A stretch of DNA of 63,924 bases, the filler included, from Hausera hauseri (taxonomy: Eukaryota): the NCBI GenBank assembly GCA_046269625.1. It is 10 parts of 10 records of this genome, joined end to end, with 100 filler letters (N's around TTAATTAATTAA, not from the genome) between each part and the next. Parts side by side here need not be neighbours in the genome. Positions count along the whole stretch, not along the records: positions 4,578 to 17,336 come from JBJURY010016676.1; 9 more parts are not named here. One strand, 5' to 3'. Made by a program: the position numbers and the translations under genes. The notes below the pieces were generated by a model. It ran no database searches. It had not been told where the DNA came from and saw only the letters and a program-made list of their open reading frames with translations. Below are positions 4,578 through 41,899 of the stretch, piece by piece (position 1 is the stretch's first letter; every line of letters begins with the position of its first letter).

Positions 4578-7000
4578 GAATCAGAAGTAACGACGTAAGA
4601 ATCGGTATAGTCCATCATGAAAACGCAGAAGCATAGAGAATAATAGGCGCTTGCCTTCTCGAATTAGATAAGTATAGAGAAGAATGTAACTACATGAAAC
4701 AAATCATAGAATTTGTACGAGGGCCAAATCACGAATTAAAAGTAGCTCTTGAGACATTAGATGAAATAATCTATGTTAAAGCAACAATATTTAAACAATT
4801 AAGGAAGTGGATAAACTTCTTACCTTCCATAGCAGAAGTAATAAATGAAAGACTAAAAGAATTCGCTATGGTTGAGCCTATAATGAGACATCAATTGGAA
4901 GAAATGTTACTAGGTATCGCTACAATGGAAGATGAAGCTAAATCGCGAATTAAATTTGAATCATTCCGAGAACTCGAATTTATGAGCAAGGATCAAGATC
5001 AAAAAACATTAAAAGAGATATACAGTATAATAGAAGAAAAGGAATTCTATAAAAAAGAAACAAGCTAAATGATCTTCAGCGAAGTTTACTAAATATCCGA
5101 TGGGAAGGGATACAGAACCTAATGCAGAAACCGTTGAAAGAAATTTCAGCACAAAAAATAGAAACATTAGAAGTTTGTAACTATCACCGGATTGCTCTAG
5201 CGCAAACACTACAATATTTACAGAATTTAAACGAATGGACACCAGGTTTCGACCTGCATTGCCACACCGAAGTAACGGAAATTAGAAAGGAACTTCAGCT
5301 GACGTCCGACGAAGCCAAGTTCATAGGCAAACAGATGGACTCAATAGATCCGGACGCCGAAGTATTAAATCAAGCACACAAATTAATTATATTATTAACA
5401 GAAATGGCGGAAGTTGACGAGGTAGTAGCCAAACGACTAATAAATCGAATACATTTGATAAAAGAAACCCGACTACGCTCCGAGAAAAGACAGGGCGAAT
5501 TAAATGAATTGGTAAGAGAAGTAGAGGTTTACAAGAACAAGTATTCCGTTAAGGAATCTGAAATCAACGACAAAATGGAATTTATACAGAGATGGCAAAA
5601 AGACAGAATCGCAGAAATAACTAGTTATCAAGAGAAAGCTCTGATACAACCAGAAGAAATATGCCGATTAATAACATTGATGCAACAAGCGTGCTGAAAC
5701 GGAGACGTATTTAGGATATCCGTAATGAAAACATTAAAACCGCAGATAAGAGAACTACGCGAACGAGTGATGTTGGACATACGGCACTAATGAACTACGA
5801 GTTACCTGACGCAGATAATGATGCCGAGTGGGATGAATATCTTTAAGGTTTAACCGAGCAAAGTCAAAGAACCCCAATACAAATTTATGAGTCACCTACT
5901 GGTGCCCAAAAGATGAAATTTGACGTGGAAATGTTACTTGACCTTGCTCTAGCTGTAAAGAAATTGAGCGGTGTATTGAAAATAAACATAAGTGAAGATA
6001 AGTTAATGAAATTGATTCCAACTTTGACTAAACCATCCAGTGAAAATACCGTATACAGCGCCATACCCAAGCTTTTAATAAGAGATTATGCTAAATTGCT
6101 AAGAGACAAACCAGAAGCGGAACTTAAAGTGAAGGTATTATCCGAAGTAATGGACGACGAGGAATTTGATTGTACTACCTATACTACCGTTGCGGATATA
6201 AAACAGCGGATAATGGATAAGAATGATAGGGAATGAGTTAGTTATCGACTATATTTCAGAGGCAGGATATTAAACAAGCTAGAATCCTTAATAGACGTAG
6301 GGATTATACCCCACGAAGAAAATCTAATAATAGCCATATTCACCAGTGAACAAACCAAAGACGAAGCCACGAGAAAAGCACATACAGACCATTGCATTGG
6401 ATAAATCATGGGAATTCAAGATGCCGCAATGTATTTCGAATACTTACAGACTGATGAGGACAAACCGCAATATGATAAGAATTTAGTCCCGCTGAGCGAA
6501 ACCGCACCACCAATAAAAGCGAAACGGCCGGTCGGAAAACCGAGAAAAATAAAAGAGATTGACTATAACGCAGATCTGATTAGAGAATTGAGACAACTAT
6601 CAGTACCAACCCCGAGTTTGGACAACGAAGAACTAATTGAGCTAATGAAATACCTAATTAGGATAGTCAATTATACTGGACTCCAAGGTGACGTATTAAC
6701 TGAGAAAGAAAGATTAATATATAATATAGCCCAAACAATGAAGACCTCGCGATTTAAACTATTTAAAAGTACCCTCCCTGACGAAACGGTAATCGATAGA
6801 ATTATGATTGACAATACGATGGAAGAATTAAGGAAAGTCTTGATATACTTTGCAGTCAGAACTAACCCTTTCCGGGAAAACGAAATTGATAAGGCAATTA
6901 AATTAGCTAGAAAAGCTGGAAAAGGGTACCTAAAGAAATTAAATGGACTAAATTATTCGAAAAAGAGGAGGAGATAATAGGAATAAATAACTTAGAAGAC
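4578..7000 (+). pseudogene. Gag-distal accessory region: long helical/coiled-coil segment, ubiquitin-like domain and AT-hook-like motif
   Basis: E/K/L-rich helical ORF fragments colinear with 31830-34748 (e.g. ELPDADNDAEWDEY vs RLPDAGNETEWDAY; LIPTLTKPSSENTVYS vs LIPTLTKLSSENTIYS); KRPVGKPRK at 6522-6548. Confidence 0.75.
6120..6340 (+). other. Ubiquitin-like (beta-grasp) domain, frameshifted
   Basis: LKVKV...TTVADIKQRI...YRLYFRGRILNKLESLIDVGI fits the ubiquitin pattern TV..LK..I...RLIF.GK.L.D...L.DYGI. Confidence 0.7.
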
Positions 7001-8900
7001 ATGATACAAAATATCTCTCCGAATAAAGGAAACAAATCCAGTTGGTTAATCAAGTTGCTGACGATAATGACGCTATTAAAGCAGTTAGGAACAGTTACTG
7101 TATATGATTGCGATAAGTTCAAAGTGGGTCAGAAATATTCCTTAATAAACCTAGAAACATGCGAAGATGCGAGACCTCACAAGCTCGAGACAGCAGAAAA
7201 AAGATATATTATATCAACAACGTGAATTAATCGCAATGAATACAACGGAATGCATGATATAGAGATCTCGCACGGGCATTTTTCAATAATCAAACCAACC
7301 ACACCATTGATTCCGATGAATATGGATAGACAGCACTGTTTAGGAGCCCGGTTAACTGGTAGAATGGTTTGTGAAAGTATGGAATTGGAAGCTCAAGAGA
7401 GAAAAATAATTAGAGCTTACAAAGTTGCAGTAAAAAAATTAAACATGCACTGTGTCGAAGGAGAATATGACATGAAAATGAATAGGAGGAGGAATAATAG
7501 TTGTAGATTTTTACGAAACCAAGTTAAGATCTCTAAAGGCAATGTTTCATAGCGTCACTAAACTAATTACCGAAAATCAAAAATGTCACATACAAGATGG
7601 CGCTTGTACGTTCCAAAGTTCAGTCGTGGTATGGAGCCCACTTTCTAAGAGAGATAGCAATTTCATCAAAATCAAAGAGTTAAAGTTTAATAAAACAATA
7701 GGAAAACGTTATACAAATAAATTACACACAAATATTAGATTGCGGGAAGATGTTATAGAACATTCCACACCGACGATATTGATATCGGACGCACACGGAT
7801 TGAAGTTTATTAGAAAAGCTTAGCTAACGTGTTGCGATTTAGTGATGTATACCACAAATTACGAAGCATTTTTCGTAGCAGAAACTGAAATCAACATGAA
7901 AACATATGACTTAAAAACACAAGATATTATCGGATTGAAGATTACTTCAAAAACCGAGACGACTACTTCTATTACAAAGGACAGACCGAAATAGTGGAGT
8001 TATATCACAAAATGATAACAAATAACTGCAGATTAGATACTGAAGTCATGGGAACCAAACTGGCCTTAATTTATGCCAACCCAGAATTGGCATCACCAAT
8101 TATATCAATGAAAAGTGTTTCCGGACAAGTTAGTGGGGAAATCCTATTAACCGACGAGTGCGAGAAAAGAGACGTACCGATTAACGTAGAAGAGAAAAGA
8201 TGCATGCAAAAATTACCGGTCATCTATGAAAATATGCCGAGAATAGCGATACCACTCACCAGAGTATTATTGGCGAACTCAGCCGAACCAACAATACTAA
8301 AGGAATGCAAAACGAGCTAAGGCGAAACCATGTTCCGACGTAGTGGAACCGACTGGATAAGTCTATCTAATGGAGGTGTTGCCACAGACCCTAGTAAGCT
8401 AAATGGGACAAATTTAATAAACGGATTATCAGAAGAGAAGTTTGAAGACACGGCCAATAAAGGAATTTATAGACCAAAGGACATAGAAATCTATAGGCAA
8501 TTCTTAGCTTTTCCACGGCAACGAACCTCTGAGCTAAATCGGGTCATGTCAATGGTCATGGACGACACCCGCTTTCAAGAAAAATGGAAATCATTACTTG
8601 GCGCTAACCGCTATCAAAGAGTAACTTTAGAAATATTGTATAAGATTTGGGGAAGATTTCTGATTTTCGGACAAGCTGCATCGGGATTCCTAGCCATATA
8701 CTTCTTAGTCTAATTAGTTAAAGCAGTAATCCAAGCTGTTATAAACGGATATGAAATATTCACATTAACAGGATTTCTCTGAAAAATTTTGACTGCAATT
8801 ATCACCCCCGTCGGGAAAATGCTCAAGGCCTACGAAAAAAACCGATGGAAAAATGACGTGGAACGCCAATTCTCAATAGACGTAAAAATAAGAAAATAGT
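7001..8900 (+). pseudogene. env: Env-like class III fusion glycoprotein, chuvirus G-like
   Basis: Signal peptide then VTVYDCD...YSL..LETC; NCRLDTEV...LIYANPE...GEILL..C...RCMQKLPV.Y...PLTRVL; GIY...FLAFP...LN; WGRFLIFGQAASGFLAIYFLV TM and a second hydrophobic stretch. Confidence 0.8.
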
Positions 8901-9429
8901 AACACAAAAGGATGATTCAGACGATGACGAGCCTAAGGGAGGAGAAGGGAATCCTAGAACAAAGATGCATAGGATGTACTCGGTGATAAACACACCAATA
9001 CCCATCCTGCCACTAACTACGACAATATATGAAGACTGTGACCAAAAATCAGTTGTGTCGTACAGGTCTGACATCTGCCGCAAACACATTGACTATGAAG
9101 ACCCTTATGAAAAGACGAAACAATATGGGGTACTACGAAAAAAGAATGTCACCAACTAAGGATTAATAGAAAACGATCACGGAATATTGTACTCAAAAAG
9201 GATACCGCGTCACATAGAATCAAAATTAACGATATGGGAGTACCCGAAACTGTGTTCAATTTCGGGTTCACTACCCCAGGAACCGCTCATTGACAGTCGC
9301 TTTACTGAAATAACAAATAACTACTTATACCCGAACGGAGAATTGAGACAACTAAGGCAAGTATCATTTTATCGCCAGAGATAACAATAAATGGACATAA
9401 AGCCTCTACCACAAAGCAGTCAAAGACAG

Positions 9430-12400
9430 CGTCAAATTGCCGTGGGACAGTATTAGAAGGAAGACCTTTGTCGAAAATACACATCGAAGATTGGGAAGTG
9501 TATGCATTAAACGACGCAGGATCAGAAAAGTCGTATATAAAATACGAATCGATACTGACCACACTGCGGAAGCAACTATGTCCACAATTATCATCAGATC
9601 CAGGTAGCATAGGAGCATTTGGGCAAGTATCAAAGCCGAAATATAATGAACCCCTACCATTTATATAATGGGCAAAACACTTCAACATGAATTTGCAGTA
9701 ATGGATCAATTAATAGACGATGTAGTATTAGGTTGTGATATATTGAAACGGATACCGGGCATGGTAATCGATGTACATGACGGAAAGTTAGTTGAGCTCG
9801 AACCAATAAAAGGGACAAAAGTAACAAAGGAAAGGAAATCATGCGAAGTATGGATTCTGGTAGACGAGGATATTCCGACCAGAACCAAAATGATAATTTT
9901 TGCACAGATTCGTTAAAACGAAGATCTGCCGGTGTATTTCGAGCCTCAAGAGAATATCGATCCAAACCTTATGTTTAGCAACATTCTATGTAGAGTAGTA
10001 ACGGGGCGAATATCTATCAGATTAGTGAACAGTGCACCAATCCCCGTAAGATCGCACGCTAACACTACTTTAGGTCACACTTGCAGAGTATCAGCAATAA
10101 CGATAGAAAAAAAGCCATATAAGTGCGCTGAGTTTCCACCTCACGTTGAAACCAAATTCTCTCCGGAGGCGTATTGCAAATTTTACGAATTACTATGCAA
10201 AAACCGTCCGATAATCGCACAGAATGAGGAAGATATATGCAGAGCAAAAGCCCTAAGATCAACAATCCCATTAAGGAAGAAACCCTGTTCGAATGATGAA
10301 ATCCATCTAGAAGAACAGAAAATGCCCAAGTGGTATCCACCTCCCCATTCATTGAGACCGGAAATAACTAAAGAGGTAGAGCGAATATTAAAGGTCGATA
10401 TAATTCGACCAAGTTACCGATCTTGGTACTCGCCTATGCTTATGGTCAAGAAGAAAGGAACTACAAAACATCCATTTTGTATAGATTACCGGGTATTAAG
10501 CACACTGATGATGAAAGACTCGTTCCCCCTACGGTCAGTAAAGGAGGCTTTAAACAGACTATAAGGGGCGAAATGGTTTACCACTCTTGACTTACAATAT
10601 GGATACTGGCAAGTAGAAATCAAAGAAGATCGATATAAGACAGCATTTAAAACACACGATTGCGTATATGAATTTAATGTTACGCCTTTCAGCATCACTA
10701 CAGAACCAGCTATTTTTACTATAATGATGAATAAGATGCTTATTGGACTTGATCATGCTTTCCCGTATTTGGATGATGTAATGATAGCATCGAAAACAGA
10801 AGAAGAACACTTAAAAGACATTGAGGATACACTCATGCGACTAGAACAAGCAGGATTGAAACTAAATTCAAAGAAATGTAAATGGGCACAGAACGCAATA
10901 TCGTACCTCCGACACATAATTGGAGAAGGAGGATCAAAATCGGATAAATTCCTGCTGGATAAAATATCCGATTGTATGGAACTGCAGAATCAAAAAGAGT
11001 TAAGGCATTGGTTGGGCCTATGTGGGTATTATGCTACTTATGTACCGGACAAATCGAAAATTAACGCACCACTATATTGCCTACTGAAAAAGGGAACTAA
11101 TTGGAAATGGAAGGAAATGGGGCAAAAATCATTCGATGAAATGAAGAAGATTTTCACGAGCGAACAAGTCCTAAGATACCGGATTTTAATCTACCATTCA
11201 TCATTAAAACAGATGCAAGTAAAGAAGGCATAGGATACGAATTAGCTCAAAAGCGAGAAGATGAAGAACTAAAACACCCAATGGACTATGGAGGACGCCC
11301 GTTAAAGAAAGCAGAAAAGAATTATTCGGTTACCGAATTAGAAACGTTAGCCGTGAAGGAAGCACTACGACACTTTAATATCTGTCTATGGGCAAAAGAT
11401 TATAATAGTGACCGACCACAAAGCAGTTACGACATTAAAAGGACGAGCTAATAACCCAACATGTAGATTAAACCGTTGGATCGAAGAAATCTCAAGATAT
11501 AACATTGAATTCCAATACAAACCAGGTAGTAAACACGTCGACGCCGACGCACTATCAAGGTTAAAGACAAAAACAAGTGGGATTACCACAATGCAGAAAA
11601 CGCAACTCGAACTAATAATTGAACGTCAAAGAAGCCTAACTCTGGATAAAACGATCAGGATCACCGCAGAGCAAGCTAAATATAAGGTTATTCAGCAAAT
11701 TGTTGAGTTCGCACAAAACGGCAAAATACCCAAAAAGACGACAACTGAAGAAGCATCTACAGAAACACGGACATAAATACCGCGCATCGAACCTAGATAA
11801 TATTCTATATTACGAACGAAAAGGAAGAAGACTAATAGTTATTCCAAAAGGATTACAAATCGAAGTACTCATGGCCGAGCATTGGCCAAGCATTTATATC
11901 GATGTAAAGAATTGGGTAGGCACTTGCGAAGTTTGCGCGACAAAGCAAAGGAAAACAAAAGGCTACGTAGCAGAATTAAAACCCATAAGCGTACCAGATA
12001 GGCCCATGCAAGCTATGTCTATGGATATAGTGGGACCTTGCCTAAAACGCACAAAAATAACAGATATATTCTAACTTGCGTGGATCGGTTAACGCATTTC
12101 GTCGAACTGGTGACACTATTGGATCAAAAGGCAGAAACTTTAGCCGACGCAATAATAAGGAAAATCATCTGCAGATACGGACCACCAGAACAAATCTTAA
12201 CGGATAGAGAAAAGAACTTCACAAGCGAATAATTCGCAAAAATTACCAAGATATTCGAAATCAAACGTTTAACCACTACCGCGTACCACCCTCAATGTAA
12301 TGGAATGGTCGAACAAATGAACGCAACAGCCATTCATATACTATCAACAGTAGTGGCCAAAGACCAAAAGGATTGGGACAAATTCCTAGAAGGGACACAG

Positions 12401-12870
12401 TTCGCAATCAATACGACCCCACATCCAGCAACAGGATTTACACCATTCTTTATGATGTATAGACGAGAGGCAATCTTACCCATGGATCTAGGTATGACAC
12501 CGTACGAAAAGAACATCGAGGATCTAGAGCAAAACTTTTCCGAAGTCTTGCAGATAAGATTGCAAGTGTTGGGAAGTTGCTAAAACATTATCACTCGAAT
12601 ACCAGGAACAATTTAAAAAAAAATATGATAAAAAGACTAAGCCCCATGATTGGGTTTATATACATTACCCAGTCGCGAAGAAAGGTACATCCTTGAAATT
12701 AACCCGTACCGGAAGAGGACCATATAAAATCGTCCGCACAACGCCAACCACGGTCTATGTTAATAAAAACGGTAAAGAGGAAGTCGTATCAATCCAAAGA
12801 GTAGTTAAAACAGATATAAGACCAGCTAAACACTACAATTTAAGACAGCGAAACGCCAAGACCTTGTCGA
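9430..12870 (+). pseudogene. pol: Gypsy pol (PR-RT-RNaseH-IN), frameshifted
   Basis: ALNDAGS (DTG in the sister copy at ~50000) and VLGCDIL; FCIDYR, LDLQYGYWQV, YLDDVMIAS; TDHKA, DADALSR; MDIVGP, TDR, YHPQCNGMVE, GPY. The IN zinc-finger His region carries a short deletion near 11880 relative to the copy at ~18020. Confidence 0.95.
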
Positions 12871-12879
12871 TAATCACTA

Positions 12880-14301
12880 GACCGGTATCATACGCACAGA
12901 TAATAGTAGACTTATCGTTGATTGCTGTCCTAACGCCTAAGTATAACGCACAATGGTGGGTCGATGAAACTTCGTTGAGCGATATATATGGAATCAAGAA
13001 AATCAAATTAAAACCTTCACCGCCAAGGGAGGGAACTTCTGAATACAAATCGGAACAAAAAGACGAAAAATTTTTATGAGCAATAAAATTAGATTATTTT
13101 TCGCCAGAAGCTCCATGTGTAGGGTTTAGGATACCAGGACCATATGAGGGGCAAATCCAGATACTATTCCATGACCTATTAAACCAAGCCGAGTCTGATT
13201 GTAAATTCGAGCCAGAAGACGATACAATTTGCTGCAACTTAAAGTACGGACACACTTACGCCCTCAGTTATCGTTTATATTTGTCAAACTGCAATAATGT
13301 GCACGCCGAAATAAACCTGAATTCACGTTTATTTATACCACGAACTTATGGAGACTACCTTAATATAGAGCTAGAAAACATGCTCCAGTCCACCGATCCA
13401 ATAAAACGGATGCTAGAAGAAAATATAGCTAATATAACGGAAAACCAAAAGGACAACTGTATCCAAATAAACACAAAAGGACGGTTAATTAAAGGACGAG
13501 TAAACACGATTCAATTTATGAGAGAGGACAAAGCAGCTCATAATCAACAGTACTGTCAAATTGACGCCGGAAGGCCGAATAAGTGTTGTAAGTTACCTCA
13601 AAGTTATAAATATAGAATTCGGTTAGACTTATATGAAGTTCGACCGAACCAGTCGAGTATTTACCTAGGAAGTTATCAATTGGAAAGCCCAATTGGGAAA
13701 ACTCCACCTGAGATGACAAAAAGCAAAATTACGACTACAAAAACGAATATGACCACTTCTACATCCACCAAAATCATCCAAACAAGTGGTTTGTCTCAGA
13801 AGAATCTGGAAACGATTCCTATAAAATATCGGACACAGCAACATAAAATAACATTCATTGTGGAAGAAGCACTTAATTATGACATAGAAATAAGCTGCCA
13901 AACATTACATAATAACCAGAAAGTAACACTGGCTAAAGGTACCTATCAAATCAAATGTACCTACTTGAAACCCAAAACAGACTACATAATACAAATAGGT
14001 GCAGAGAACAGACAAAGTAGAACGCTTACGGTACGGACCCTAAACGAGATTGTCTTAACGAAACCACTAACTAACAAGGAAACGGAAGACAAAACTACGA
14101 CTACCACTAAAACGAAAAACCTAACTAAATGGACAACTCTCAATAATATTGATTATTGGATCGTCAACGTTTGCTCTCATAACTTTTGTTGCGTTTTTCC
14201 GATTTATTACCAAAAACTGCTGTAATAAGCGTCATAAAATCACCGAGAGGGAATTAAGGGTAATGGTACCGCAGGATGGAATCAATTATGGAGTAACCTG
14301 A
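12880..14301 (+). pseudogene. Integrase-fused type I membrane protein (signal peptide, two Cys domains, Thr-rich stalk, FN3-like domain, TM, short tail)
   Basis: YAQIIVDLSLIAVL in frame with IN; PCVGFR...ICCNLKY; CIQI...YC...KCCKLP; TTTKTNMTTSTST; YLKPKTDYIIQIGAEN...TVRT; hydrophobic segment ~14140-14210; ends ...YGVT-TGA. Confidence 0.72.
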
Positions 14302-14307
14302 CAATTA
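14299..14307 (+). promoter_or_regulatory. Putative stop-codon readthrough signal TGA-CAA-TTA (stop-CAR-YYA)
   Basis: Same context (TGA CAA CTA) at 20471-20479 and 45318-45310; matches the tobamovirus-type stop-CARYYA motif. Confidence 0.55.
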
Positions 14308-14384
14308 CAGGTCGGGTTATTCCACCATAAAACAAAGAATTGGTTCAGATTTAGAACAATACTTTGTTATAGGATATAACCTTA

Positions 14385-14399
14385 TTTTTTGTCTTTCAG
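14385..14399 (+). promoter_or_regulatory. Putative splice acceptor (polypyrimidine-TTTCAG) just before the ORF4 ATG
   Basis: TTTTTTGTCTTTCAG-A-ATG; equivalent TTTTTCAG at 20564-20571 and at 45238-45228 (minus). Confidence 0.55.
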
Positions 14400-14980
14400 A
14401 ATGGTAAGTACAGATAGCCGCATTAGTATCGACGAGTATTTACGGAGACAAGTTACAGTGTTTATTTCGAACGCAAAATCTATCTATAGAAGGATAACTG
14501 AAGCATTGCAGGCAAAAACCTATGCCGAATTTTCGAAAACCAATGAAATTCCCAATGATCTAAAAGGTATTATAGAGGAAAATCGCACAGTCTTCCTTTA
14601 CGCAATGCGCGAAGGTAACCAAGATAAAGCATATTCCCTAAAGGAATTAATCCGAAACAGACTAGCCAAAATTCAAGACATACATCCATTTAGCCTACGG
14701 AGAAATATATTATAGAATAGAAAACCAACCCTGGAACTCCAACGAAGGACATCAATACCGGTTCAGTACATTTAAAATAAATGGAAGAGGTTTAGAACAT
14801 ATCAATTACAGCCTAGAATTTAGAGTAGCTGCCCTTCCTGTCAAACTTATGATCGCAGTGACCTCCAGAGAAGATTGTAACTTACAGTTGCCGCCCTTAG
14901 AATTTGAGCAAATTCCAACTGAAACAGAAAAGGATGAACATCACCAATCATATAGACTAGTCTAAGACGGTCGCAACGTA

Positions 14981-15470
14981 AGAATCATCGCGATAAACTG
15001 TGGCAGAGAAAATGATGGATATGGAATACCCATAGAAGTATCTATTAGGGAGAGAGACGGGATCGAAATATACTCTACAATCATAAATCCCCGAAAACGT
15101 GTCCAAGAATCGTATGCGGAAGTGACCGGTTTAAGGAAAAAGCAGCTCACAGGAGGAAAGGACATTAAGCAAGTCCGTTCAGAATTGGATCATTGCCTTT
15201 ACGGTTGTATGTTAACAGGATATAACGTGCAACGATCAATCCAGCTACTAGAAATATCCGATGCAAATATTGCCGGAATAAGGGAAATGGCCACTCACCC
15301 AATAATCCAAAAACAGATGGAGAGAACCGTGCAAGGAAGAAATCATGCACGACCAACCGCTCCAAAAGTCTTCTTTAAGTTAATGATCGAAGCAATGAGC
15401 AATGACTCGAGTAGAATTCAAAGACTTTTAACGGCTAGCCAACGCTCCAAATATTTGAAAGAAATTTATA
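14981..15470 (+). other. ISG20/REX4-like DEDDh 3'-5' exonuclease fold lacking its catalytic acidic residues
   Basis: RIIAINCG...EVSI...IYSTIINPRKRVQESYAEVTGL...L..G.DIKQVRSEL...L.G.MLTGY...IREMATHP...ASQRSKYLKEIY tracks the REX4 pattern VA.DCE...RVSI...YVKP...V.DYRT..SGI...ILVGH...D...RDT...H.SVEDA.A.M.LY. Confidence 0.65.
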
Positions 15471-16463
15471 AACCATTAAAGTGGGAACATGAATGGGTCC
15501 CTAGAAACCCCTTATACAATTTACGCAGTTCCCTGAAGCCCGAACAAATAGATACAAGATATAGAAGGAATATCAAACTCTACTCTCCGACCAGAACTGT
15601 CCAGTCGATGGGCAGGCATAGTCTTACGATCGCCGTGCTAAAACCTATGGAAGGACAAGAGGAAAATAAAACGGAATTACAAACGATCGAAAAAGGAAAC
15701 AAAATACTCAATAGAACGTCAAAGTCTCTAGAAGAAAACAAAGAAGAACTGAGGCCGGAAACAATAATAAAGAAGCAGAAATTAGAAGAAAAGCCCCAGT
15801 CCAATAAAACGCAATCTATTTACAACTACTTATTCAAGAAAAAAAGAAAAGACGAGAAGCTAAAAGATGAAAACCAACAAATCGAACCAAGTACCTCTCA
15901 GAAGGTCAAATCCGTAGAGAAAAAAATCAGTGAACCTATGATAACCGAAGTCAATGTCCTTTTAGGAAAAAAGACCGAAAGAAATGTCCACTGTAAAACA
16001 ACTCAGGACTCATCAAGAATGTTAATAACCACAGAATATTGAAGTAAGAAAATGATTAAGGAAGCTATGTTCTATATCAAAGTTGTCCCAGCAAGAGAAG
16101 TTTTCGAAAACACTTATGTATGGGAAAATCCTAAGTTGGGAAATTACATTACCTCCGTCTTCCGCTCAAAAAGAACGGGAAAGTTAATAGTACCAGTAGG
16201 TAAACAAATCCGGATATTACTAAAAAAAACAGTATCAACGATATCGAGTAGAAAGGAAGATCCCGGATTTAGACCAAGACTTTATGGTGGATTGGACCCT
16301 AGTGCAAGTAAGCTGCGATCAAAGAAAAAGTTCCATTAACCCTAAGCAGAAGGTAATTCATGGATACCTTTATCAAGACGGGGATGGTCTTATATTCGAG
16401 CCTATTGAATTAACAATCCAAGTTGACTTAGATCGAGATGATTGGGACAAGGAAGAAAATGAA

Positions 16464-16593
16464 TGCCGTGTGCGATGTCAACCTGAGACAAGGCTATGTG
16501 GTCTTGGATAACAAGATTTGCCGCCACAAATACTGTCGGGATTGTTTGGAGAAGTGGACACTCGACAATGGAAAAACAACATGTCCGGTATGT
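16464..16593 (+). other. C3HC4 RING finger (frameshift within the first Cys pair)
   Basis: C.VC...CRHKYCRDC...W...TCPVC; intact in the copy at 43706-43840. Confidence 0.88.
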
Positions 16594-16815
16594 CGAGCGG
16601 AGGCTACGGATCTGGAATATTATTCTGATGGAAGTTACACCTGAGTCGTTCGTATTAAGCCCTACCACAGTTATGATCTAGAGACGAACCCTTTAATAAG
16701 CCAAACCAACCGGATTCCCAAACTGATTTACGAGAGAGGATGGATCGATTAAGGCGACCAAGGACATTAGGCGCCACCTCTTCTGACGCAATAGGCTCCT
16801 TCGAGGATGCCGCTC

Positions 16816-16827
16816 AGGGAGCAGAGA
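16816..16827 (+). promoter_or_regulatory. Polypurine tract
   Basis: AGGGAGCAGAGA followed by TGT; equivalents at 23117-23128 and 43494-43483. Confidence 0.8.
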
Positions 16828-17336
16828 TGTAATAAACCAGATTATGATTGGTGAAAATATTTTTAATTCAGACCGTAATGATTGAAATGTAAATGTAAAT
16901 TTATTTATAGGTTATTTATGAAATTGTCGGCTCATTTTAGAATAGTACTAGAATATGCGATCGTTTATGACTAACAAATAATTGTAAAAATATTTATGAT
17001 TGAATTGTAATGCAAAAGAATGCAAATATATTTAGAAATATTGTAAATAAATTAATGGAGTTCCAGACTTGCTACTATATAAGCAGATTCTAAAACGACC
17101 AAATTGAACCAGATGTGAACAGGTTAACCAGTTGTTGACCTTAAAGTCAGAATCAAATCGAATTGTGCTAATTGACGATATTAGTTATATTCGGAATTAT
17201 TCGACTACTCCTGACGTGTTATTTCTTGTGTGGAATAATGAAGGTTATTTGTATTTTGTCGTTAATATTCCCTATATAGTTTGCATCGTCTCTTAAAGAT
17301 GATTTGACTACATTAAGGGTAAAATCAGAATTAATC
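16828..17336 (+). repeat. 3' LTR, truncated by the contig end
   Basis: TG start after the PPT, AT-rich, TATATAA box near 17076. Confidence 0.75.
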
Positions 17337-17436: not shown

Positions 17437-19080
17437 AAGAAAGCCGAAAAGAATTATTCCGTTACTGAATTAGAAACCCTAGCCGTTAAAGAAGCACTTC
17501 GGCATTTTAATGTTTACATATACGGACACAAAATTATAATTTTTACTGATCATAAAGCCGTCACGACTTTAAAAGGACCAGCAAATAATCCGACGTGTAG
17601 ACTTAACAGATGGATTGAAGAAATTTCTAGATACAATATCGAATTTCAGTATAAACCTGGAAACAAGCACGTAGATGCTGATGCACTGTCGAGGTTAAAA
17701 ATTAAGACGAGTACAATTACTGTTATGAAGAAAACTCAGCTCAAGGAAATAATAGATCGCCAACGTGCCATAACACTGGATAAAGCAATTAAAATCGCAG
17801 CAGAACGAAAAAGGATAAGGTTATTCAGCAGATTATAGAATTTACAAAAAGGGACATCATACCAAAAGGATGACAACTAAAGAAACAGTTACACCGGAAC
17901 GGGCATAAATACTGTCTTAAATGGCAAAGGCAATGAAGATATTTTATATTACGAACGAAATGGAAGAAAATTGATAGTTATTCCAAAAGGTTTACGAACC
18001 GAAGTTTTAATGGCAGAACACGACTCATATTTAGCAAGACACATGTCATGGAAAAAGACATAGGAAAGTATATAGAATAAATACTTTTGGCCCAGTATCT
18101 ATATTGATGTGAAGAACTGGGTAAATGCTTGTGAGGTATGTGCGACTAAACAGAAAAAGACGAAAAATTACATGGCGGAACTGAAACTAATCAACGTACC
18201 AGATAGACCCATGCAAGCCATGTCAATGAATATCGTAGGACCCATAAGAATAATAAATATATCTTACCCTGTATTGATCGTCTAACTCATTTTGTCGAAT
18301 TTGTAGCTTTGATTGACCAAAAGGCAGAAACTTTGGCGGAGGCTGTAGTGAGAAGAATTATTTGTAGATATGGACCTCCAGATCAAATATTAACAGATCG
18401 AGGAAGAAATTTCACAAGTGAACTATTTGAGAAAATTATTAAAATATTTGAGATTGAGCAGTTAACTACTACCGCATACCATCCTCAATGTAATGAAATG
18501 GTTGAACGGATGAACGCAACCGTCATACGCATATTATCCACAGTGGTAGACAAAGACCAAAAAATTGGGACGAATTTTTAGAAGGAACTCAATTTTCCAT
18601 CAATACTATACCACATCCAGCGACAGGATTTACACCGTTATTCATGATGTATGGACGTGAAGTTGTATTGCCCACAGATTTAGGAATGACACCATACACA
18701 GTAAACCCCGAAGAGTTAGAACAAAATTTTGCAGAAGTGCTACAGACACGACTACACAAATGTTGGAAAATTGCCAAAGAATTATCGCAAGAATATCAAG
18801 AACAGTTTAAAAGCAATATGATAAGAAAGCGAAGTTAGACGATTTAGAACAAGGAAATTTGGTTTATATTCATTACTCAGTAGCTAAGAAAGGTACGTCG
18901 TTAAAACTGACTCGTACAGACAGAGAACCGTATGAAGTTGCTAAAGTTACGTCAACTACGGTGCACATCAACAAAAATGGAAAAGAAATCATATCAGTAC
19001 AGAGAGTCGTTAAGACAGAAATACGGCCCAATAAACGTTACAACTTACGACAACCCGAGACAAAAACTTCTTCAATAATT
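17437..19080 (+). pseudogene. pol: RNaseH-integrase portion of pol
   Basis: NYSVTELETLAV, TDHKA, DADALSR, HDSYLARH...CEVC, LTDRGRNFTS, YHPQCN.MVER. Confidence 0.95.
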
Positions 19081-20473
19081 ACTAGACCGATTTCATACGT
19101 TCAGATAGTTTTAGTACTGTCGTTAATTGCTTCGTATATCCCAAAGGCACAAACTCAATGGTCGGACGACGAAACTACGCTAGAAGACGTATATGGAATC
19201 CGGAAGAGCGGATTAAAACGGAAAACCGTCGTAGTGGAAAAGAAGCCAACGCCCGAAGAAATCCAAAAACCAGAAGACAATTTTTGACAAACAATGAAGG
19301 CTCAATACTTTTCGCCAGATGCTGTGTGTCGGATTCAAACTCGGAGACCACATCACGATTTTGGGAAATTCCAAGTAGTGATGCATGATAAGGCAGGGAA
19401 CGAAATCAAAAACTGTGATTTCGAACTAGGAGATTATACACAATGCTGTGACGTAAACTACGGATGCACGTAAATCCTTAATTACCAATTAAATCTAGCA
19501 GACTCACCTGAAGTCTACGTAGAAGTAGACCCAGAGCTCCAATTAATTATGCCAACATTAGCCCGACGATTCGAAATAAAACTCGACGAAATGCTACAAT
19601 CCACCGACCAAAATATAAGGCGATTAAATAAAAATATCAAAGGGATCTCAGTTAATAATAAAAAACAATGCATCCAAGTAGATGCTCGAACGGGATTAAC
19701 TCTGAGTCAAGAAATTAGCATTGTTTTCGAAGCAGTAAACGGAAAACTCCGAAAATAGAATACTGCTCTGTTCATGCCGGTGTGCAACACCTGTGTTGTA
19801 AGCTACCAGTAAACCAAGAATTCAAAATAAAATTTGACTTATATGAAGTATGACCGAATAAACCGAGCAAGCACTTGCGAACGTATTATCCAGAAAATAA
19901 AGTATGGAGAATTTCAATAGAAACGACGACCAAAAGGCCGACCACTCGAGTTAGTACCATTATGAAAATCGTTACATCAAGCCGTGTACCCAAAAGAGAA
20001 TTAGAAAGTATACCTATTAAATATTCGGCACACCGATTTAAAATTGTGTTCTTCGTAGAAAAACTAAATTACGATATACTTATAAGCTGCCGAACAACGT
20101 ATAATAATCAAATAGTAACATTATTTAAGAAGACTTACCAGACAGAATTCAATTTGTTAAAACCACAATACGATTACATAGTACAAGTATATGCAGAAAA
20201 TAAGCAAAACCAAACAATTACATTGCGTACCTTAGATGAAATTCGTGCAGAATCGCATATATACGAAAACAGACGATGAAATCACAAGCACCAATGGGAT
20301 TAACCATTTTACCGATCGTGTCCACTTTTGTACTATCAACATTTTTTCTCATTATATTAATTGCGATTTTTCGGTTAGTTGCCAAAAATTGTTATTCTAA
20401 GCGTCCTAAAACTACAGAATGGGAATTAAGGGAATTGAAAACCCCTATCGGTCCATATGATAAAATAACCTGA
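19080..20473 (+). pseudogene. Integrase-fused type I membrane protein
   Basis: YVQIVLVLSLIASY signal; Cys domains; NLLKPQYDYIVQVYAEN...TLRT FN3-like; TM ILPIVSTFVLSTFFLIILIAIF; tail ends YDKIT-TGA. Confidence 0.75.
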
Positions 20474-20587
20474 CAACTACAAAGCTGGTTATTCTATCAT
20501 CAAATGAAGAATTGCTTTTATTTCTAGACCATCCCTTATTGTAAGAGTAATCCTTACTGTTTATTTTTCAGATTAAAGAGTATTCAC

Positions 20588-22950
20588 ATGGCCGAACGAT
20601 ATAGTATCGACAACCAACCAAAAGGAACCAGTCAAAAACGTCGATATAGTATCGACGAGTTTCTTCAGAAATATGCCGCCGTCTTCCTCCCAAATTCCAA
20701 GTCCATATATCGAGAAATTCATAACGAATTGCATGAGAAAACTTTTGTGAAGTACGATCAGATTAGTAGAATTCATAACAATCTAAAAGGTATTCTGGAA
20801 GAAAATAGAACTGTCTCTCTCTACGTCATGCGAGAAGACAAGGACGCCCGAGCATACACCCTCAAATATTTATATCCACCTGGAGGACAGTGAGATATAC
20901 TATCGATTCAAATATCAAGAATGGAACGCTAAAAACGAAAGGTAATACAGATTTAACATCCTTAGCCTACGTAGCGGAAATTTATAGCACTATGAATTAG
21001 AATTTCGAGTAGCCGCCCTTCCTGCAAAATTGATGTTCGAGGTGACTTGCCACGATTACCCCTATATCCAACTATCACCTTTGAAATTCTATCAACAACC
21101 GTCAGAAAAGCATTTGGACACATTCTTACAATCGTGTAGACTAGTGCAAGATGCCCGAAATACAAGAATCATAGCAACCAATTGTGGACAAGGGAATGAC
21201 GCGCAAAGGATTCCAATGGAAGTCTCAATGCGAGAAACAAGAGAAACAGAAGTATATTGTACGATTATTAGCCCGCGAAAACGCGTTCGCGAGACATACT
21301 ACGATACGACAGGAATTCGCAAAGAAACGCTTCCGAGAGGCAGAGACATCAAACTTGTCCAGGCAGAGTTAGAACACTGCTATATGGATATATCCTAGCT
21401 GGATATCGTATCGATAGGATTATCGAGCTCTTAGAGATACCCCGCTCAAGCATCGTAGGAACGCGTGAGATAGGGACACACCCAGTAGTCGCCGAACAGA
21501 CTAAACGAATATTGCGAGAAAGAAATTACCCTATGCCAAAAGTTATGGATGCCTATTTTAAGTTAATAGTTGACGCCATGAACAGCGAACGCGTTAAGAT
21601 TAGCAAATTGTTGACTGTAAGCCAACGTACCCAATACTTACGCGATATTTATGTAGCTTTAAAATTGGACCATGAGTGGACACCCAGTAATCCAGAACAA
21701 AATTTACGAAGTCCATCAAATCCGGACACTATAAGCAAAAAGTATCGGAAGCAGTATCGTTCGTATTCCCGTGCAGAGTCGTTGAAACTATGGGACAGGA
21801 CGATATCAAAATAACTATTCACAAATCAGATAGAATGAGTACCGATTTTCCCAGCACCAGTCGTAGTTCTCATACTAAATCTAATTTACCCATCAAGAGA
21901 CCAAGTCCAAAACAGGAATCAATAATAAAGGAAATAACCACAGTTGAGACCTTTAAGGTTCCACAAGTTCCCCAAAAAAGACAGAAAATTAAGATACAAA
22001 CTCCAGCAGTTAAAAGAAAAACATCCTTCTAGGAATACTTGTTTAGGAAGAAAAACAAAGGAACGAGCTCAACCCAAGTACAAGAAGACCGAACCAGTAA
22101 AAGGAACGAAGAACCCGAAAATTCAGAGATAGCAAGAAAAATTCCAACGACATCTGCAAATAACCTGACGACAATTCAAGTTCCAGAAAAACCCAAGAGA
22201 TCGATACAGAAATACAATGACCCAAAAGGCCGATTTATACAGCTATTCACGGAAATAAATTCGCTTAGGAAAATGAACTCTCAGGTAGATGTACATTTTA
22301 CAACAACTAAAGATTACCCAAAAATGCTAGTAACTACCGAATATTATAGTCACAGGAAAATCAAAGAAGCCATGTTTTTCGTAAAGATGACACAAGCAAG
22401 AGAAGTTTATGAAAACACCTACATTTGGGAAAACTCTAAAATAGGAAAGTATATCGCCCCCATCTTTTAGTCGAAAAGAAAAGGCAAGTTAACCGTACCA
22501 GTAGACAAACAAATAAAAACCTTGCTAAAGGAAAAATATCAGAGGTATAAAAATGATGGTTAAATTCCCGATTTAGATCGAGATACCACTGCTGATTGAA
22601 TATTAGTACCAGTAGTTTATGACCCTAGAAAAAGTTCCGTAAATCATAAGCAAGATAATCCATGGTTACCTATACCAAGATAAAGAGGGTCTCATATTCG
22701 AACCCATCGAACTCATAATAGGAGTAGATTTAGACAACGAAAAATGGGATAAAGAAGAAAATGAATTCCCAGTATGTGAAGCGAATCTCAGTCAAGGATA
22801 CGTCGTTCTAGACAACCGCGATTTCCGACATAAATATTGCCGAGATTGTTTGGAAAAATGGACTCTAGACAATGGAAAAACTACATGTCCCGTGTGTAGA
22901 GCCGAGGCGACCGAATTAAAATATTTTTCGAATGGTAGTTATACCCGTGT
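20588..22950 (+). pseudogene. ORF4 (inactive DEDDh exonuclease fold ~21165-21655; RING ~22765-22897)
   Basis: RIIATNCG...EVSM...IISPRKRV...TTGI; RHKYCRDCLEKW...TCPVC. Confidence 0.72.
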
Positions 22951-23128
22951 AGTCCGAAAAAACCCCATTACAGTTATGAATTGGAAACAAATCCCCGAGA
23001 AACTCAGCCAAATACGGACTCAGAAGTAAACTTATATCGACGGACAAATCTCCTAAGACAACCACGATATGGCGTCACCTCTCCTGATGCAGTGGGCACA
23101 TCCGATGATGCCGCTCAGGGAGGAGAAA

Positions 23129-23726
23129 CGTTGTAAAGATGTCCAATGTTGTAAGATGTCCAGAAATTGTAAATACTGTTATAAGCAGCAAATACTGTTA
23201 TTGTAAATAATTATTATTTTATGATATTTTCTCATTAATGTACAAACTTAGGAATTTGTACAAATATAAAGAAGGAAATTAGTAATAATTCGGTATATTT
23301 TTAGAATTTTCGGAAAAGGCGTTGAATTTATATTAATTTTTAAATCTGAAAAATCAGTTAAAAACTGTTTATAATTCTGAATAATCAGTCACGTACGCAG
23401 TACAGTCTTGTATATATACAGCAGAAAAAGAAATTAAAAATTGTTGAGAAGTCGAAAAGTATTAAGAAGTATTGAGTTGAGAAATTAAATTGATAATTGA
23501 AAACCTTTTGAAGCCAGATTTGCAAGTTGCTAAGGATCATTGAAGTTGGGAAGCAAATTCAGATTGAATTCGAGAAAACGACTGATTTGGTTCGATACTG
23601 TGGTGTATCCAGTAATTGTTTTGTTGTAAAATATACTTATTATTTTAAAATTCTTATATAATTTTTCATTGCCCCATAAGGGTGATTAGACTACACGAAG
23701 GTCTAAAATTCTACGGTAAATTAACA
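23129..23726 (+). repeat. 3' LTR (~600 bp)
   Basis: Follows PPT AGGGAGGAGAAA; starts CGTT (TGTT with a T>C change) and ends TTAACA; TATA-like box at ~23411. The right end is inferred. Confidence 0.65.
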
Positions 23727-23927
23727 TGGTTAAGACGATAATTTTTGTTAACATTTTGCACAGAACCACAAGCGAGTACCAGTACTACTGATTAAACTAT
23801 TTCTTATAAGGCACAATCTGTCTAATCAATAACGATACACCTTACTTGTATTAAGATACTCAAATCTTAAGTGTAATTATTGTTATATAGTGGGAGTTGT
23901 ATAAGGGCCACCATAATATATAACATT

Positions 23928-23945
23928 TGGCGACCCTAGCAGGAC
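23928..23945 (+). promoter_or_regulatory. Primer-binding site of another LTR element (tRNA-Arg-like) directly after an LTR end
   Basis: ...ATATAACA-TT-TGGCGACCCTAGCAGGAC; TGG start 2 nt after a CA end. Confidence 0.6.
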
Positions 23946-24197
23946 AGATTAGTGCCTCGTTAGACTTCAGCTGAAAGTTAATTAAAACGACATACCGGCG
24001 ATGAGCGCCACTCAGATTTAACCGCCTTTGAGCGAACCGATAAGTTTAAAATACCTCTTGTGAAAACTCAAGTTAATAAGGTAAATTTTACGACTAANNN
24101 NNNNNNNNNNNNNNNNNNNNNNNNNNNNNNNNNNNNNNNNNTTAATTAATTAANNNNNNNNNNNNNNNNNNNNNNNNNNNNNNNNNNNNNNNNNNNN

Positions 24198-25025: not shown

Positions 25026-26156
25026 ATCAATTTATATTTCATTTATATAATTGACATTATTCAAACAAATTATCACATTTTCTAACTGTTTGAATATTCA
25101 AAAAAAACTTTTACACTGTATTCAGTCCGACATGTTTTTTACGGTATTAAATTTTTTGTTAGTCTTCTTGATCGATTTTCTTTTTTCATTATTTAATATG
25201 TCCAATTGGGGCACTGATGCAAATTTTGGAGAAGGAAATACAAATACAGATGTAAAGCAAGAAATTCATAACAAATGCCAACGCTTTATGTGGAGTAAAA
25301 CCAATAACGGTTCTCTTGACGATTGTCAGAATTAATTTAATAAAACATCAAGCGCGTATAATGAAGTCACACAAAACGTTGACCTGCAAATGGAACTGTT
25401 GCCCAAAGATTGTGATTATGAATATGCGAAAAAATCAACCAGAGCAAACATGCTGAAATTCAAACAGAATTACGGAAACATTATGGGCAGAAAGACGTCG
25501 GTTTTATCATTTACGGCAGAAACATCGTTACATATGAATTTAAACCCAATATGTAATATCCGAAATCTCAGACACATTCCTGCACTCAGCCGTTTCAATT
25601 TTGTCGATACAGAAACAGGCCGACGATCCAATGGTTCATTTTCGACGGGTTTCGCATGCCGCGGCCAACACGCAAATTACAGGTTGGTGAATTTGATTAC
25701 ATATATAATACCATCCCGAGACTCCATTTGTTAGAATATTCATGATCAGTGTTTTAAATGGAGGAAATAAAAACCACACAATACTGCAATTTTTATTACT
25801 TAGTTTAAACTATTACCAACCGAGACAATTGGACAAATTGAGATTTTCTCTCATTTTACAATTATGCAAAATTCTTAAATGGCCGAAGCTTATTTTAATT
25901 CGTTTAATGTTTTAAATGAAAAAGGCCAATTAGCCGATGCCACTGTAATTATTTCAATAAAATCCGAAGTGAGTAGCAATCAAGTAGTAGAAGAGATACA
26001 TGGCAACATAAGTAAAAAAACGATATTCCTTTTATTGATTATGATTCCTTTTATACCGATTTTTTCTGTGGTTATTCGAATTATAAGGTGTGGTTAATTA
26101 AACATGCATGACTCTCTAAACTTATTGGCACATACGGAGCACCCGAACAGTCTGAG

Positions 26157-29100: not shown

Positions 29101-30702
29101 GAAGGCCCAAAAACTACCAAAATACTGGCATATCCAAAACCCGACGCGGAGCTGATACTTACCACCGATGCCTCTACCACAGCTACAGGTGCAATACTAC
29201 ACCAGATTTCCAATGGCATCTATGAACCTTTAAAATTTTACTCTCGAAAACTCAAACAACCAGAAGGCAAATATTCAACATTTGATCGTGAGCTACTAGC
29301 CATTGTTATGGCAGTAAAGCATTTCAAGCATCTCCTCCTTTCTTATACATTTATCATCCTAACAGATCGTAAGCCTCTGCTGCACATCATGTTACTAAAA
29401 CAACCATCGCCGAGGCAGGAACGACAGATATCGTACCTATGTACATTTAGTTTTGTCATAAAGTACTGAGAATTTGGTCGCGGATTTTCTGTCGCAGTTG
29501 ATAGGCTCAATTGCGGTTGAACCAATATTTTCTACCGAAATTCTAAAGCTCAATCAGCCGTCAGCTTATTCTTAGCTCTCTCATGTTTTTCCAAATCATT
29601 GATGGCATTGCATACGACACTTCTAACCACGGTAATAAAAAAATAATTCTTCCTTCTTCTTTGCAGAAAACAGCTTTCCTTCACACGCATTCACTTCATC
29701 ATCCAGGCTCAAAGGCCACGTTTCGCTTGCTCCAACGTCATGTAGTTTGGCCATCAATGAGCACAGATGTACAGGGTTGGGTTAAGGAATGCGTAGCCTG
29801 TCAAAAATACAAAGTCAAAAAACATCTTAAACCGCCGCTTTACCATTTGCCTTGTACGTTACGTTTTTATACCGTCCATCTTGATATTGTTGGACCCTTA
29901 CCTTCTAACAACACGTATCAACATATTTTCACTATGATAAATCGTGCTTCTCCCTGGCCTGAAACCGTTCCTCTCCGTTCAACAAACACTGATTCAGTAG
30001 CCTATGCCTTAATTAAAATCTGGATAAGGTCCTCAGTTCGAATCGGACATCTTTAAATCGCTTGTTCAACGCCTGGGGATATCACATTTCCATAAAACAC
30101 CGTAACATCCACAGTCAAATGGCCTTCTTGAAAGGTTCCACTGAACAATGAAAATGTGTTTAAAAATCTTGTCAGATAATCATCGCAATTGGACGTCCAT
30201 TCTACCATTTGTTCTACTTGGGTGGAGCAATACACCTTCCACCACCACGGGTTGTGCTCCAGTCGAGCTTTTTAGGACTTCAATACAGGCTCTGTTTGAA
30301 CTTTTCGACCTCGACGACAATCCGACAGAAGAAAACATTCGCGCCGCACAGTATCACTTTGCTGAGGTCAGCTCAGATTCGTTTTGCCGTCTATATAACA
30401 ATAGAAAATCGTACATTTCAAAGGATTTATACTCAGCCAAGTTTGTATGGCTGAAGGATCAATCACCTTCGGTTTTTCGACCTCAGTATGTTGGCCCATA
30501 CAAACTTTTTCACCTCTCACCTCATGCGAATACCATCTTACGCCAAGACAAAGCCTACAACTTCCACACTTCGAATCTTAAGCCCGCTTTCTTCGTTGAA
30601 GACAATCCAAATGCCTATTCTACTTCCAACCCTAACTTAACTCTCACTCCTTCCATTCCTTCATTACACTTTCTCCACGATTTCGCTCCGTTAGAGCAAT
30701 AA
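26157..30702 (+). mobile_element. Decayed Ty3/Gypsy element, Mag-like (gag-PR-RT-RH-IN), unrelated to the env-bearing family
   Basis: Gag PY..L...GSQKPS...FL.SLP.SIR...LA.LADK with a C.YH..F.....C knuckle; FLIDSGA; KKDGTFRLCGDY; YIDDILVAS; TTDAS...FYSRKL...STFDRELLAI; H.LHHPG...CVAC; HLDIVGPLP; GPY. Confidence 0.9.
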
Positions 30703-31400: not shown

Positions 31401-31827
31401 GAATTAACGGACTAGTTGGCTTAATTATGGAGGAATGTCCGTGTATTCGTCCACAGTGGAAGATGCTATGCGATCGTCTCAACATGCACTCCATTCCGTC
31501 TAACGATATCAATTCTTGTTGTTGATACAGGAAGTAACTTTTCTCTCTCGTTTCCAATTTGTGCGGTCGGGCGTTTTCGCATACTTCCAGGTCCACTAAG
31601 GAGTATCTCTGTCCTAATTTAAACTTATCGCAATCGTAGACGGTTACCGCACTTATATGCTTTATTAGCATCATTAAGGTAAGCAAGCTAATTAGCCAAT
31701 TTGATTCACTTTTCCGACCTCCAACGTCTGACGTTGTCAGGTTACGTAACACATCGTCGAGTTTATTGTTATTTCGTTTGTTTTCTTCCTTGTCGAATAA
31801 TCGTGCCCAATTTACTTCGCAAGGCAT
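31401..31827 (-). pseudogene. env: Chuvirus-like glycoprotein N-terminus
   Basis: WLISLLTLMMLIKHISA|VTVYDCD...YSLVDLEVC...LYQQ...ECMLRRS..IFHCG..GHSSII. Confidence 0.8.
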
Positions 31828-41759: not shown

Positions 41760-41899
41760 GTATGTTTGCTGAATCAGAATTGGATCGTTTGAAATTACTC
41801 ATTGAAAAGTAAACAACAGTTGTAGTAAATTTTTTATTATTCAAAATATTTATTTGGAAACAAATTTGCCAAATTTAAATCAGACTTTTAATTTGAATT

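Follow-up and report, generated by a model that had tools for sequence, protein, structure and literature searches.

A predicted catalytically dead ISG20/REX4-like exonuclease domain, joined to a RING finger, in the last ORF of a Ty3/gypsy element

The last ORF of a decayed Ty3/gypsy element in Hausera hauseri encodes, at positions 14966–15526 of the DNA analysed here, a predicted DEDDh fold of the ISG20/REX4 type. As judged from alignments, every catalytic residue of this domain is replaced, whichever of two registers is applied to its first motif. The dead form is older than the split between the families of copies 1 and 2, and it has been retained by selection, more loosely than pol. A sister clade with the same N-terminal domain keeps the motif, so that the family probably goes back to an element-borne nuclease with catalytic activity, which was lost in the dead lineage specifically.

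The carrier element and its accessory ORF

The window, by which we mean the whole stretch of 63,924 nucleotides that was analysed, consists of ten contigs of an AT-rich animal genome with N-linkers between them. The contig at 4578–17336 is a decayed Ty3/gypsy element with the order env, pol, a 381-aa ORF, a long broken ORF, a polypurine run and a putative LTR. The long broken ORF, here called the accessory ORF, has two further copies in the window and an unbroken counterpart, protein P0001. The features are as follows.

7040–8900 (+): decayed env, a Monjiviricetes/gB-type fusion glycoprotein, upstream of pol (PF24664, E 7e-12 and 4e-11)
9321–12900 (+): decayed Ty3/gypsy pol (protease-like, RT, RNase H, integrase), from PF00078 (E 2e-21) and reading frames
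13080–14225 (+): upstream accessory ORF, 381 aa open, beta-rich, with weak FN3-like Pfam hints (E 0.06–0.16); conserved across four copies
14401–16830 (+): whole accessory ORF, copy 1 (barrel, pseudo-nuclease, low-complexity linker, further domain, RING), from tblastn with P0001
14401–14870 (+): N-terminal domain, a predicted 2OG-dioxygenase-like double-stranded beta-helix, with a frame change near 14655–14675
14966–15526 (+): predicted DEDDh-fold (ISG20/REX4-like) pseudo-exonuclease domain, copy 1, open frame, from phmmer, profile and model
14990–14998 (+): ExoI positions, A-x-N replacing D-x-E in the preferred register, from the sister alignment and the structural range
15236–15238 (+): ExoII acidic position, Ser in copy 1, from the sister-profile alignment
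15428–15445 (+): ExoIII H-x4-D positions, L-x4-R in copy 1 (His position 15428, Asp position 15443)
15930–16340 (+): conserved domain between linker and RING, family not assigned, 63% identical over 62 aa to copy 2 and present in P0001
16460–16593 (+): C3HC4 RING finger of copy 1, in two pieces because of a frame change; copy 2 and P0001 pass the PF00097 cut-off
16816–17336 (+): polypurine-tract-like run, then a TG-starting putative 3′ LTR interrupted by the contig end, inferred from sequence
20588–23130 (+): accessory ORF, copy 2; nuclease-like domain 21150–21709, frame change near 21385
31401–35920 (−): related element, 5′ part (end of gag including a zinc knuckle, a long spacer that holds a ubiquitin-like domain, start of env), from sequence and Pfam
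43478–45175 (−): accessory ORF, copy 3; RING kept, barrel mostly and nuclease-like domain almost entirely missing

By its gene content, the carrier is a gag-env-pol Ty3/gypsy element. Its PR-RT-RH-IN pol has a gB-type env upstream, as in GAG-ENV-POL errantivirus-like Ty3/gypsy elements, with gag taken from the other contig of a related copy; the RNase H and integrase Pfam matches were found in the pol of copy 3. Related element copies lie at 17437–24097 (+) and 42219–48700 (−). The polypurine run and TG start recur in 3/3 copies, and copy 2 also has a CA end and a primer-site-like motif: its 3′ LTR-like stretch at 23131–23940 (+) directly adjoins a primer-binding-site-like motif at 23928, a junction that reads as either a tandem element or a collapsed LTR. 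No paired LTR for copy 1 was found on contig 4578–17336. A sequencing run (X1), which may be the source of the window, yielded 677 contigs matching the region, most of them under 95% alike, consistent with a multi-copy family.

The copy 1 accessory ORF is disrupted by frame changes in the vicinity of 14665, 16226 and 16470, and its in-frame stops include 14963, 16040 and 16642. P0001 (profile E 4e-64) is an unbroken 870 aa with the same architecture and aligns over the entire broken ORF of all three copies, at 36–61% identity by segment. Since its C-terminal residues match the frame that crosses the polypurine tract in the window copies, it probably comes from a related element. The original prediction had the nuclease-like domain carried by a retroelement and followed in its ORF by a C-terminal RING, and both points are borne out: the ORF is the last one of the gag-env(gB-type)-pol element, and a C3HC4 RING ends it, also in P0001 (residues 747–790). 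PF00097 scored 30.8 bits in P0001 and 24.8 bits in copy 2 (cut-off 21), and the C3HC4 ligand pattern is present. That account had left out the third copy (43478–45175, −), which is without the stretch equivalent to P0001 residues 134–403; this absence could be a post-insertion loss.

The smaller FN3-hint ORF between pol and the nuclease ORF was also seen at 19294–20243, 45543–46029 (−) and 403–1083 (−). A membrane-protein-like ORF at L001:1-1512, upstream of the exonuclease of that metagenome locus, had no similarity to the 13080–14225 ORF by tblastn. A ubiquitin-like domain stands upstream of env at 32343–32732 (−) (PF00240, E 1e-4, under cut-off) and again at 6130–6370 (+).

The N-terminal domain of the accessory ORF is known chiefly from the P0001 model described below. 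Model residues 1–153 matched Ofd2 at Z 9.7 (133 aligned, 3.1 Å), vCPH, a viral prolyl hydroxylase, at 9.2, ALKBH6 at 9.0 and FTO at 8.8; these matches are at 2–8% identity, for a domain modelled jointly with the nuclease rather than alone, and cupins were also among its Foldseek matches. The predicted model has the double-stranded beta-helix core with N-terminal helices of the 2OG-Fe(II) dioxygenase superfamily. No HxD motif is invariant among 10 sisters and no HxD..H motif was seen in the copy 1 domain, while a single His is invariant in 10/10 sisters and present in copies 1 and 2, P0001 and P0002. At the sequence level, searches of PDB and Pfam with the domain gave nothing meaningful, hhalign did not link it to E. 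coli AlkB, and Atlas offered only TM<0.5 with a low-confidence model. We read it, on the model, as a 2OG-dioxygenase-like barrel, probably without the usual iron site in both the active and the dead branch.

Fold and catalytic positions of the nuclease-like domain

Searched by itself against the PDB with phmmer, the nuclease-like domain of the window gave four matches at E<=10, and 4/4 are DEDDh proteins: DnaQ (E 0.019), PolC-exo (0.072), SDN1 (0.17) and ISG20 (0.37). Pfam alone gave no match for it, and its single-sequence fold, at pLDDT 38, was no usable model. A three-piece profile of the two window copies was then run against 1.84 billion proteins at E<=0.001. It returned 14 proteins, comprising two of the same clade, four sisters, six REX4-like proteins with PF00929 and two repeat-rich false matches (P0004 and P0012), which were discarded as family members. 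The family profile matched ISG20L2 at E 1e-20. Two Logan-derived proteins, P0003 and P0007, carry three to four REX4-like domains in tandem, and the catalytic motifs are degenerate in some of these.

The first two domains of P0001 were modelled with AlphaFold on a 24-row alignment. In the resulting model (pLDDT 83.5, pTM 0.82), barrel and nuclease form a single unit, predicted with confidence. It superposes on ISG20 with Z 17.3 (2.2 Å, 159 residues aligned) and on ISG20L2 with Z 16.8, followed by PolC, DnaQ, Pan2 and SDN1 at Z 12.8–13.6. Because its alignment included REX4-type rows, the model is not independent of the sequence evidence, fold and register being partly circular. Together, the ISG20 match of the model and the phmmer matches of the window domain alone bear out the ISG20/REX4-like fold that had been predicted.

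Other searches returned little. Word-indexed searches with the window protein found no homolog among 312 and 67 candidates. Nor did any locus turn up among the 87 candidates when metagenome contigs were scanned with P0008, or among the 149 candidates when viral contigs were scanned with sisters. An arenavirus nucleoprotein ranked fourth in Atlas with a score of 0.87, under the 0.9 bar, and was not among the 50 matches listed in each of two VIA lists and in the viral Foldseek list.

The catalytic residues of ISG20 include D11, D94 and D154 (PMC7756014). The corresponding first motif lies in AINCG at 14990–15004 in copy 1 and in ATNCG at 21174–21188 in copy 2. In a sister-only profile (15 proteins), D-x-E aligns ungapped to A-x-N with a posterior of at least 0.9. 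The structural range agrees: model residue 189 pairs with ISG20 residue 6, and Ala falls on ISG20 D11 if the first strand is ungapped. The alternative register, N-C-G for D-C-E, derives from REX4-type spacing (SDN1 alignment) and requires a 2-residue loop deletion; as N-x-G/A, it is likewise without acids. We therefore take A-x-N for D-x-E, rather than N-C-G, as the likely ExoI register.

Read in this register, the five catalytic positions are A-N-S-L-R in copy 1 and A-N-M-L-C in P0001; copy 2, in two pieces, shows A-N and I-L-R, and P0002, which is partial, shows A-N. ExoI is thus A-N in 4/4 clade members; ExoII is non-acidic, and ExoIII neither His nor acidic, in 3/3. An Asp that follows ExoII and does not vary among sisters and hosts is replaced by Glu in 3/3 dead-clade rows. 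The predicted replacement of ExoII and ExoIII in both copies is confirmed (copy 1 has S, L and R, copy 2 has I, L and R). For ExoI, the prediction stands as to the loss, AINCG and ATNCG being present and free of acids in either register, but not as to N-C-G, for which A-x-N is preferred. The domain accordingly has the fold of the DEDDh ISG20/REX4 group and is without its ExoI D-x-E, ExoII Asp and ExoIII H-x4-D. By the two-metal mechanism, and by analogy with the inactive Bombyx Maelstrom, nuclease activity is very probably absent.

Outside the catalytic positions, the dead clade has its own insertion of ~10 residues. Its invariant polar residues are E 15035, E 15284, H 15191 and H 15296, and N 14996, E 15035, E 15284 and H 15296 are common to all dead-clade rows that cover them. 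It also keeps several residues that are invariant in the active-motif sisters (P-R, G and G-x-R). Among the 40 of 323 differences listed between X1 and the window, 36 are within the open frame, 15 silent and 21 not, and the sole ExoI difference is silent.

Sister clade, age of the loss and selection

Family-profile searches gave further proteins and 14 metagenome loci. Six of these 14 sister loci entered the census and tree together with 9 database proteins, the others being near-duplicates, truncated or broken; P0002 and the copy 2 pieces were left out of the tree as partial. All 15 sisters examined keep D-E-(D/E)-H-D, two as DEDD and 13 as DEED. The sisters and the dead clade have the N-terminal domain in common: a profile of the sister domain found P0002 (E 2.5e-10), copy 1 (9e-7), copy 3 (3e-4), P0001 (0.013) and copy 2 (0.06), against a best E of 1.1 in 200 shuffles, and no REX4-like protein was among the matches listed for it.

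In one sister locus, L014, the intact exonuclease gene precedes a TG...CA stretch of ~1.6 kb, after which come a primer-site-like motif and gag (PF03732 and zinc knuckle). This layout is consistent with a terminal ORF in an LTR element whose sequence continues across a tandem or collapsed LTR, and the same LTR-then-primer-site junction occurs in window copy 2. In the tree, the six REX4-like rows fall on one side of a branch (99/100), while the branch of the dead clade is very long (3.7) and its placement weak (55/67); one piece of copy 2 scored 29 bits with the host profile vs 19 bits with the sister profile. Because the placement is weak and the branch long, descent from the sisters rests mainly on the shared N-terminal domain and the 3′-terminal position. 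The original prediction had been staked on intact copies not retaining D-E-D-D; this holds within the clade, whose unbroken P0001 is without it, while the sister clade keeps D-E-(D/E)-H-D. A further protein, P0031, is partly degenerate, with N-x-D at ExoI, ExoII lost and no RING, and is possibly a second, independent or intermediate, loss of activity.

The loss is ancestral rather than the product of decay after insertion, as had been proposed. Over 183 codons, copies 1 and 2 share 51% identity, pS is 0.77 (saturated) and pN is 0.29; we quote pN/pS instead of dN/dS since dS is saturated. For the nuclease-like domain, pN/pS between the copies is 0.38 (0.30–0.47), so that the dN/dS-type check named in the prediction points to purifying selection. 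The N-terminal part gave 0.40, the RING region 0.18 and pol segments 0.12–0.20, and the 32 codons after the domain gave 0.77 (0.51–1.18); the rows labelled 'domain3', 'IN1' and 'FN3orf C' were excluded as frame-mismatched or too short. With silent sites saturated and 51% identity nevertheless maintained, the loss must predate the family split and the domain must have been kept by selection. The domain thereby combines the marks of a DEDD pseudo-nuclease, namely a kept fold, lost catalytic residues and selection.

Neutral decay of a once-active gene after insertion would account for the damage to the three window copies, each of which has stops, frame changes or a deletion. It does not account for shared replacements in silent-saturated copies and in an unbroken 870-aa ORF, nor for the pN/pS of the domain, and we hold it to be very improbable.

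Possible functions and related systems

Our tentative guess, which we would put somewhat below even, is that the dead nuclease domain serves as an RNA-binding adaptor for the fused RING. An active element-borne exonuclease would have become a pseudo-exonuclease by losing its five catalytic residues; this domain would bind RNA, and the RNA-bound adaptor would bring the RING to host proteins for ubiquitination, presumably those of a silencing or restriction complex that the host assembles on RNA of the element. We favour this reading because the DEDD pseudo-nucleases that serve as precedents bind RNA, because every full-length dead member seen (copies 1 and 2 and P0001) combines the loss of the catalytic residues with a fused RING, and because the elements carry much ubiquitin-pathway cargo. 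No RING was found in the same chain in the full-length sister proteins scanned. Two sister loci have such genes upstream instead, three RING genes and a TRAF gene in L011 and one RING gene and a TRAF gene in L012; the TRAF-like gene encodes RING, zf-TRAF, coiled coil and MATH. On their sequences, these genes make up a cassette of ubiquitin-signalling cargo. The stretches concerned, L011:1-3999 and L012:54-1845, lie just upstream of the intact exonuclease and contain RING-H2 genes (L011), a RING of the C3HC4_3 type and a complete TRAF-like gene.

Several features speak against the adaptor. The charge of the domain is not consistently basic (net +9 in copy 1 and +1 in P0001; +4 to +8 in REX4-like proteins), the zinc site of Maelstrom is lacking, with no Cys among 61 clade-invariant columns for its ECHC tetrad, and copy 3 is without the domain. 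No SAM-like subdomain of the Exu/PXL kind was seen in the dead-clade protein. Moreover, because ~300 residues, including the long low-complexity linker, separate the nuclease fold from the RING, the two may act apart. That linker is compatible with a domain working independently of the RING as an RNA shield or decoy, capping 3′ ends or structures of the element RNA or occupying partners of host DEDDh nucleases; the evidence of fold and selection applies equally to such a role, and exonuclease-dead ISG20 D154G retains an activity (PMC7756014). The coincidence of catalytic loss and RING fusion tells against it, the RING-less P0031 is compatible with both shield and adaptor, and on balance we regard the shield as unlikely.

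The inconsistent charge would also suit a protein-binding scaffold, in which both dead folds bind a host protein and no nucleic acid. So would the clade-specific insertion with its new invariant residues, and the single confident unit formed by barrel and nuclease. This role sits less well with the retention of the P-R, G and G-x-R residues of the active-motif sisters and with the RNA binding of the DEDD pseudo-nucleases compared (PMC4408791, PMC13659232), and we consider it, too, an unlikely explanation. The polar residues common to the dead clade (N 14996, E 15035, E 15284, H 15296) and the barrel His kept in 10/10 sisters, copies 1 and 2, P0001 and P0002 raise the question of whether the protein is still an enzyme, with a rebuilt or weak site formed by conserved Asn, Glu and His or a metal at the invariant His of the barrel. 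All four acids and the His are lost, Arg or Cys occupies the ExoIII Asp position, and Bombyx Maelstrom without DEDD is inactive (PMC4408791), so we find this quite improbable. Extending the adaptor reading to the whole family, a dioxygenase-like barrel joined to an ISG20-type exonuclease may have diverged into an active branch and an RNA-recognition branch serving a RING, the latter for counter-defence by tagging host RNA-silencing or restriction proteins on RNA of the element, so that they are destroyed; as a whole, this picture is doubtful.

PML is a RING protein. To our knowledge, there are few known cases of animal LTR retrotransposons that encode counter-defence proteins. Among host proteins, the closest precedents are Maelstrom, Exuperantia and the PXL domain of PML, all of them DEDD folds with catalytic residues lost. 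Maelstrom without DEDD binds ssRNA, the Bombyx protein is inactive and an active relative exists in amoebae (PMC4408791), paralleling the active-motif sisters of the dead clade. The PXL pseudo-exonuclease binds G-rich RNA and DNA, and a SAM-like subdomain gives part of its RNA specificity (PMC13659232). Exuperantia (PDB 5l80) matched the P0001 model at Z 9.9. These are host genes with an ECHC zinc site or a SAM-like subdomain, whereas the domain described here is element-borne and closest to ISG20 (Z 17.3).

Among retroelements, the Juno and Vesta LTR retrotransposons and the Terminons of bdelloid rotifers encode an intact DEDDy exonuclease in ORF3 (PMC5408684). The likeness lies in the additional ORF that an animal Ty3/gypsy element carries 3′ of pol, in its DnaQ-like 3′-5′ exonuclease and in the DEED variant, found here in 13/15 sisters. 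The rotifer ORF3 differs in being RNase D-like DEDDy with catalytic residues intact, as opposed to ISG20/REX4-type DEDDh, and the available text of PMC5408684 does not describe a barrel domain, a RING or a dead form. The gene order and env class resemble those of errantiviruses reported from Nematoda, Bryozoa and Platyhelminthes, which have the order GAG-ENV-POL and an env of HSV/gB type (PMC13524379); in its main text, that paper does not use the terms exonuclease, DEDD, RING or accessory and describes no ORFs 3′ of pol. Burro giant gypsy elements of planarians have a mononegavirus-like env between gag and pol, a ubiquitin/SUMO-like domain and RING and MATH/TRAF cargo (PMC6431247). They resemble the present elements by layout only, in the env between gag and pol, the ubiquitin-like domain before env, the RING and the TRAF of L011 and L012; an exonuclease is not listed for them in the part of PMC6431247 covered here, and their BIR, BCL2 and ankyrin domains were not seen in the window. 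Orchid Ty3/gypsy elements carry an AlkB-type 2-ODD ORF, an active m6A demethylase (PMC9289625), and thus also an accessory domain of 2OG-dioxygenase fold; the orchid ORF has clear AlkB similarity, whereas the barrel here is a structural match only (Z 8–10, 2–8% identity) with no HxD..H seen.

Intact DEDDy ORFs on rotifer LTR elements, AlkB on orchid gypsy elements and host pseudo-exonucleases are therefore already known from the sources cited. In the literature outside supplements, Repbase notes and subscription papers, we found no description of a dead DEDDh domain, a barrel-DEDDh fusion or a RING-fused dead exonuclease on a retroelement. The known accessory ORFs would gain a DEDDh type and a barrel-nuclease fusion. 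The full-motif sisters and the RING-carrying lineage without the motif form a matched natural pair for following how a captured nuclease becomes a binding module, and the pair bears on the use of ubiquitin ligases by retroelements against host RNA defence. If the counter-defence reading is true, a retrotransposon would mirror host proteins such as Maelstrom and PML.

Other sequences of the window include a separate decayed Ty3/gypsy element at 26112–30700 (+), with RT, RNase H and integrase matches, a primer-site-like motif at 26185 and no match to the nuclease domain. A further decayed element at 55818–59698 (−) has an endonuclease-VII-like motif (PF02945, E 8e-4), a RING gene and DNA-polymerase-B-like stretches, which we take to resemble the Polinton/Maverick type. 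A RING match lies at 52893–53327 (−) and a forkhead match at 41400–41789 on other contigs. At 42219–42790, the end of the putative LTR of copy 3 is ~400 bases from an exon that, from its translation, presumably belongs to the cytochrome P450 family; by sequence, this exon and the forkhead match are pieces of the host genome.
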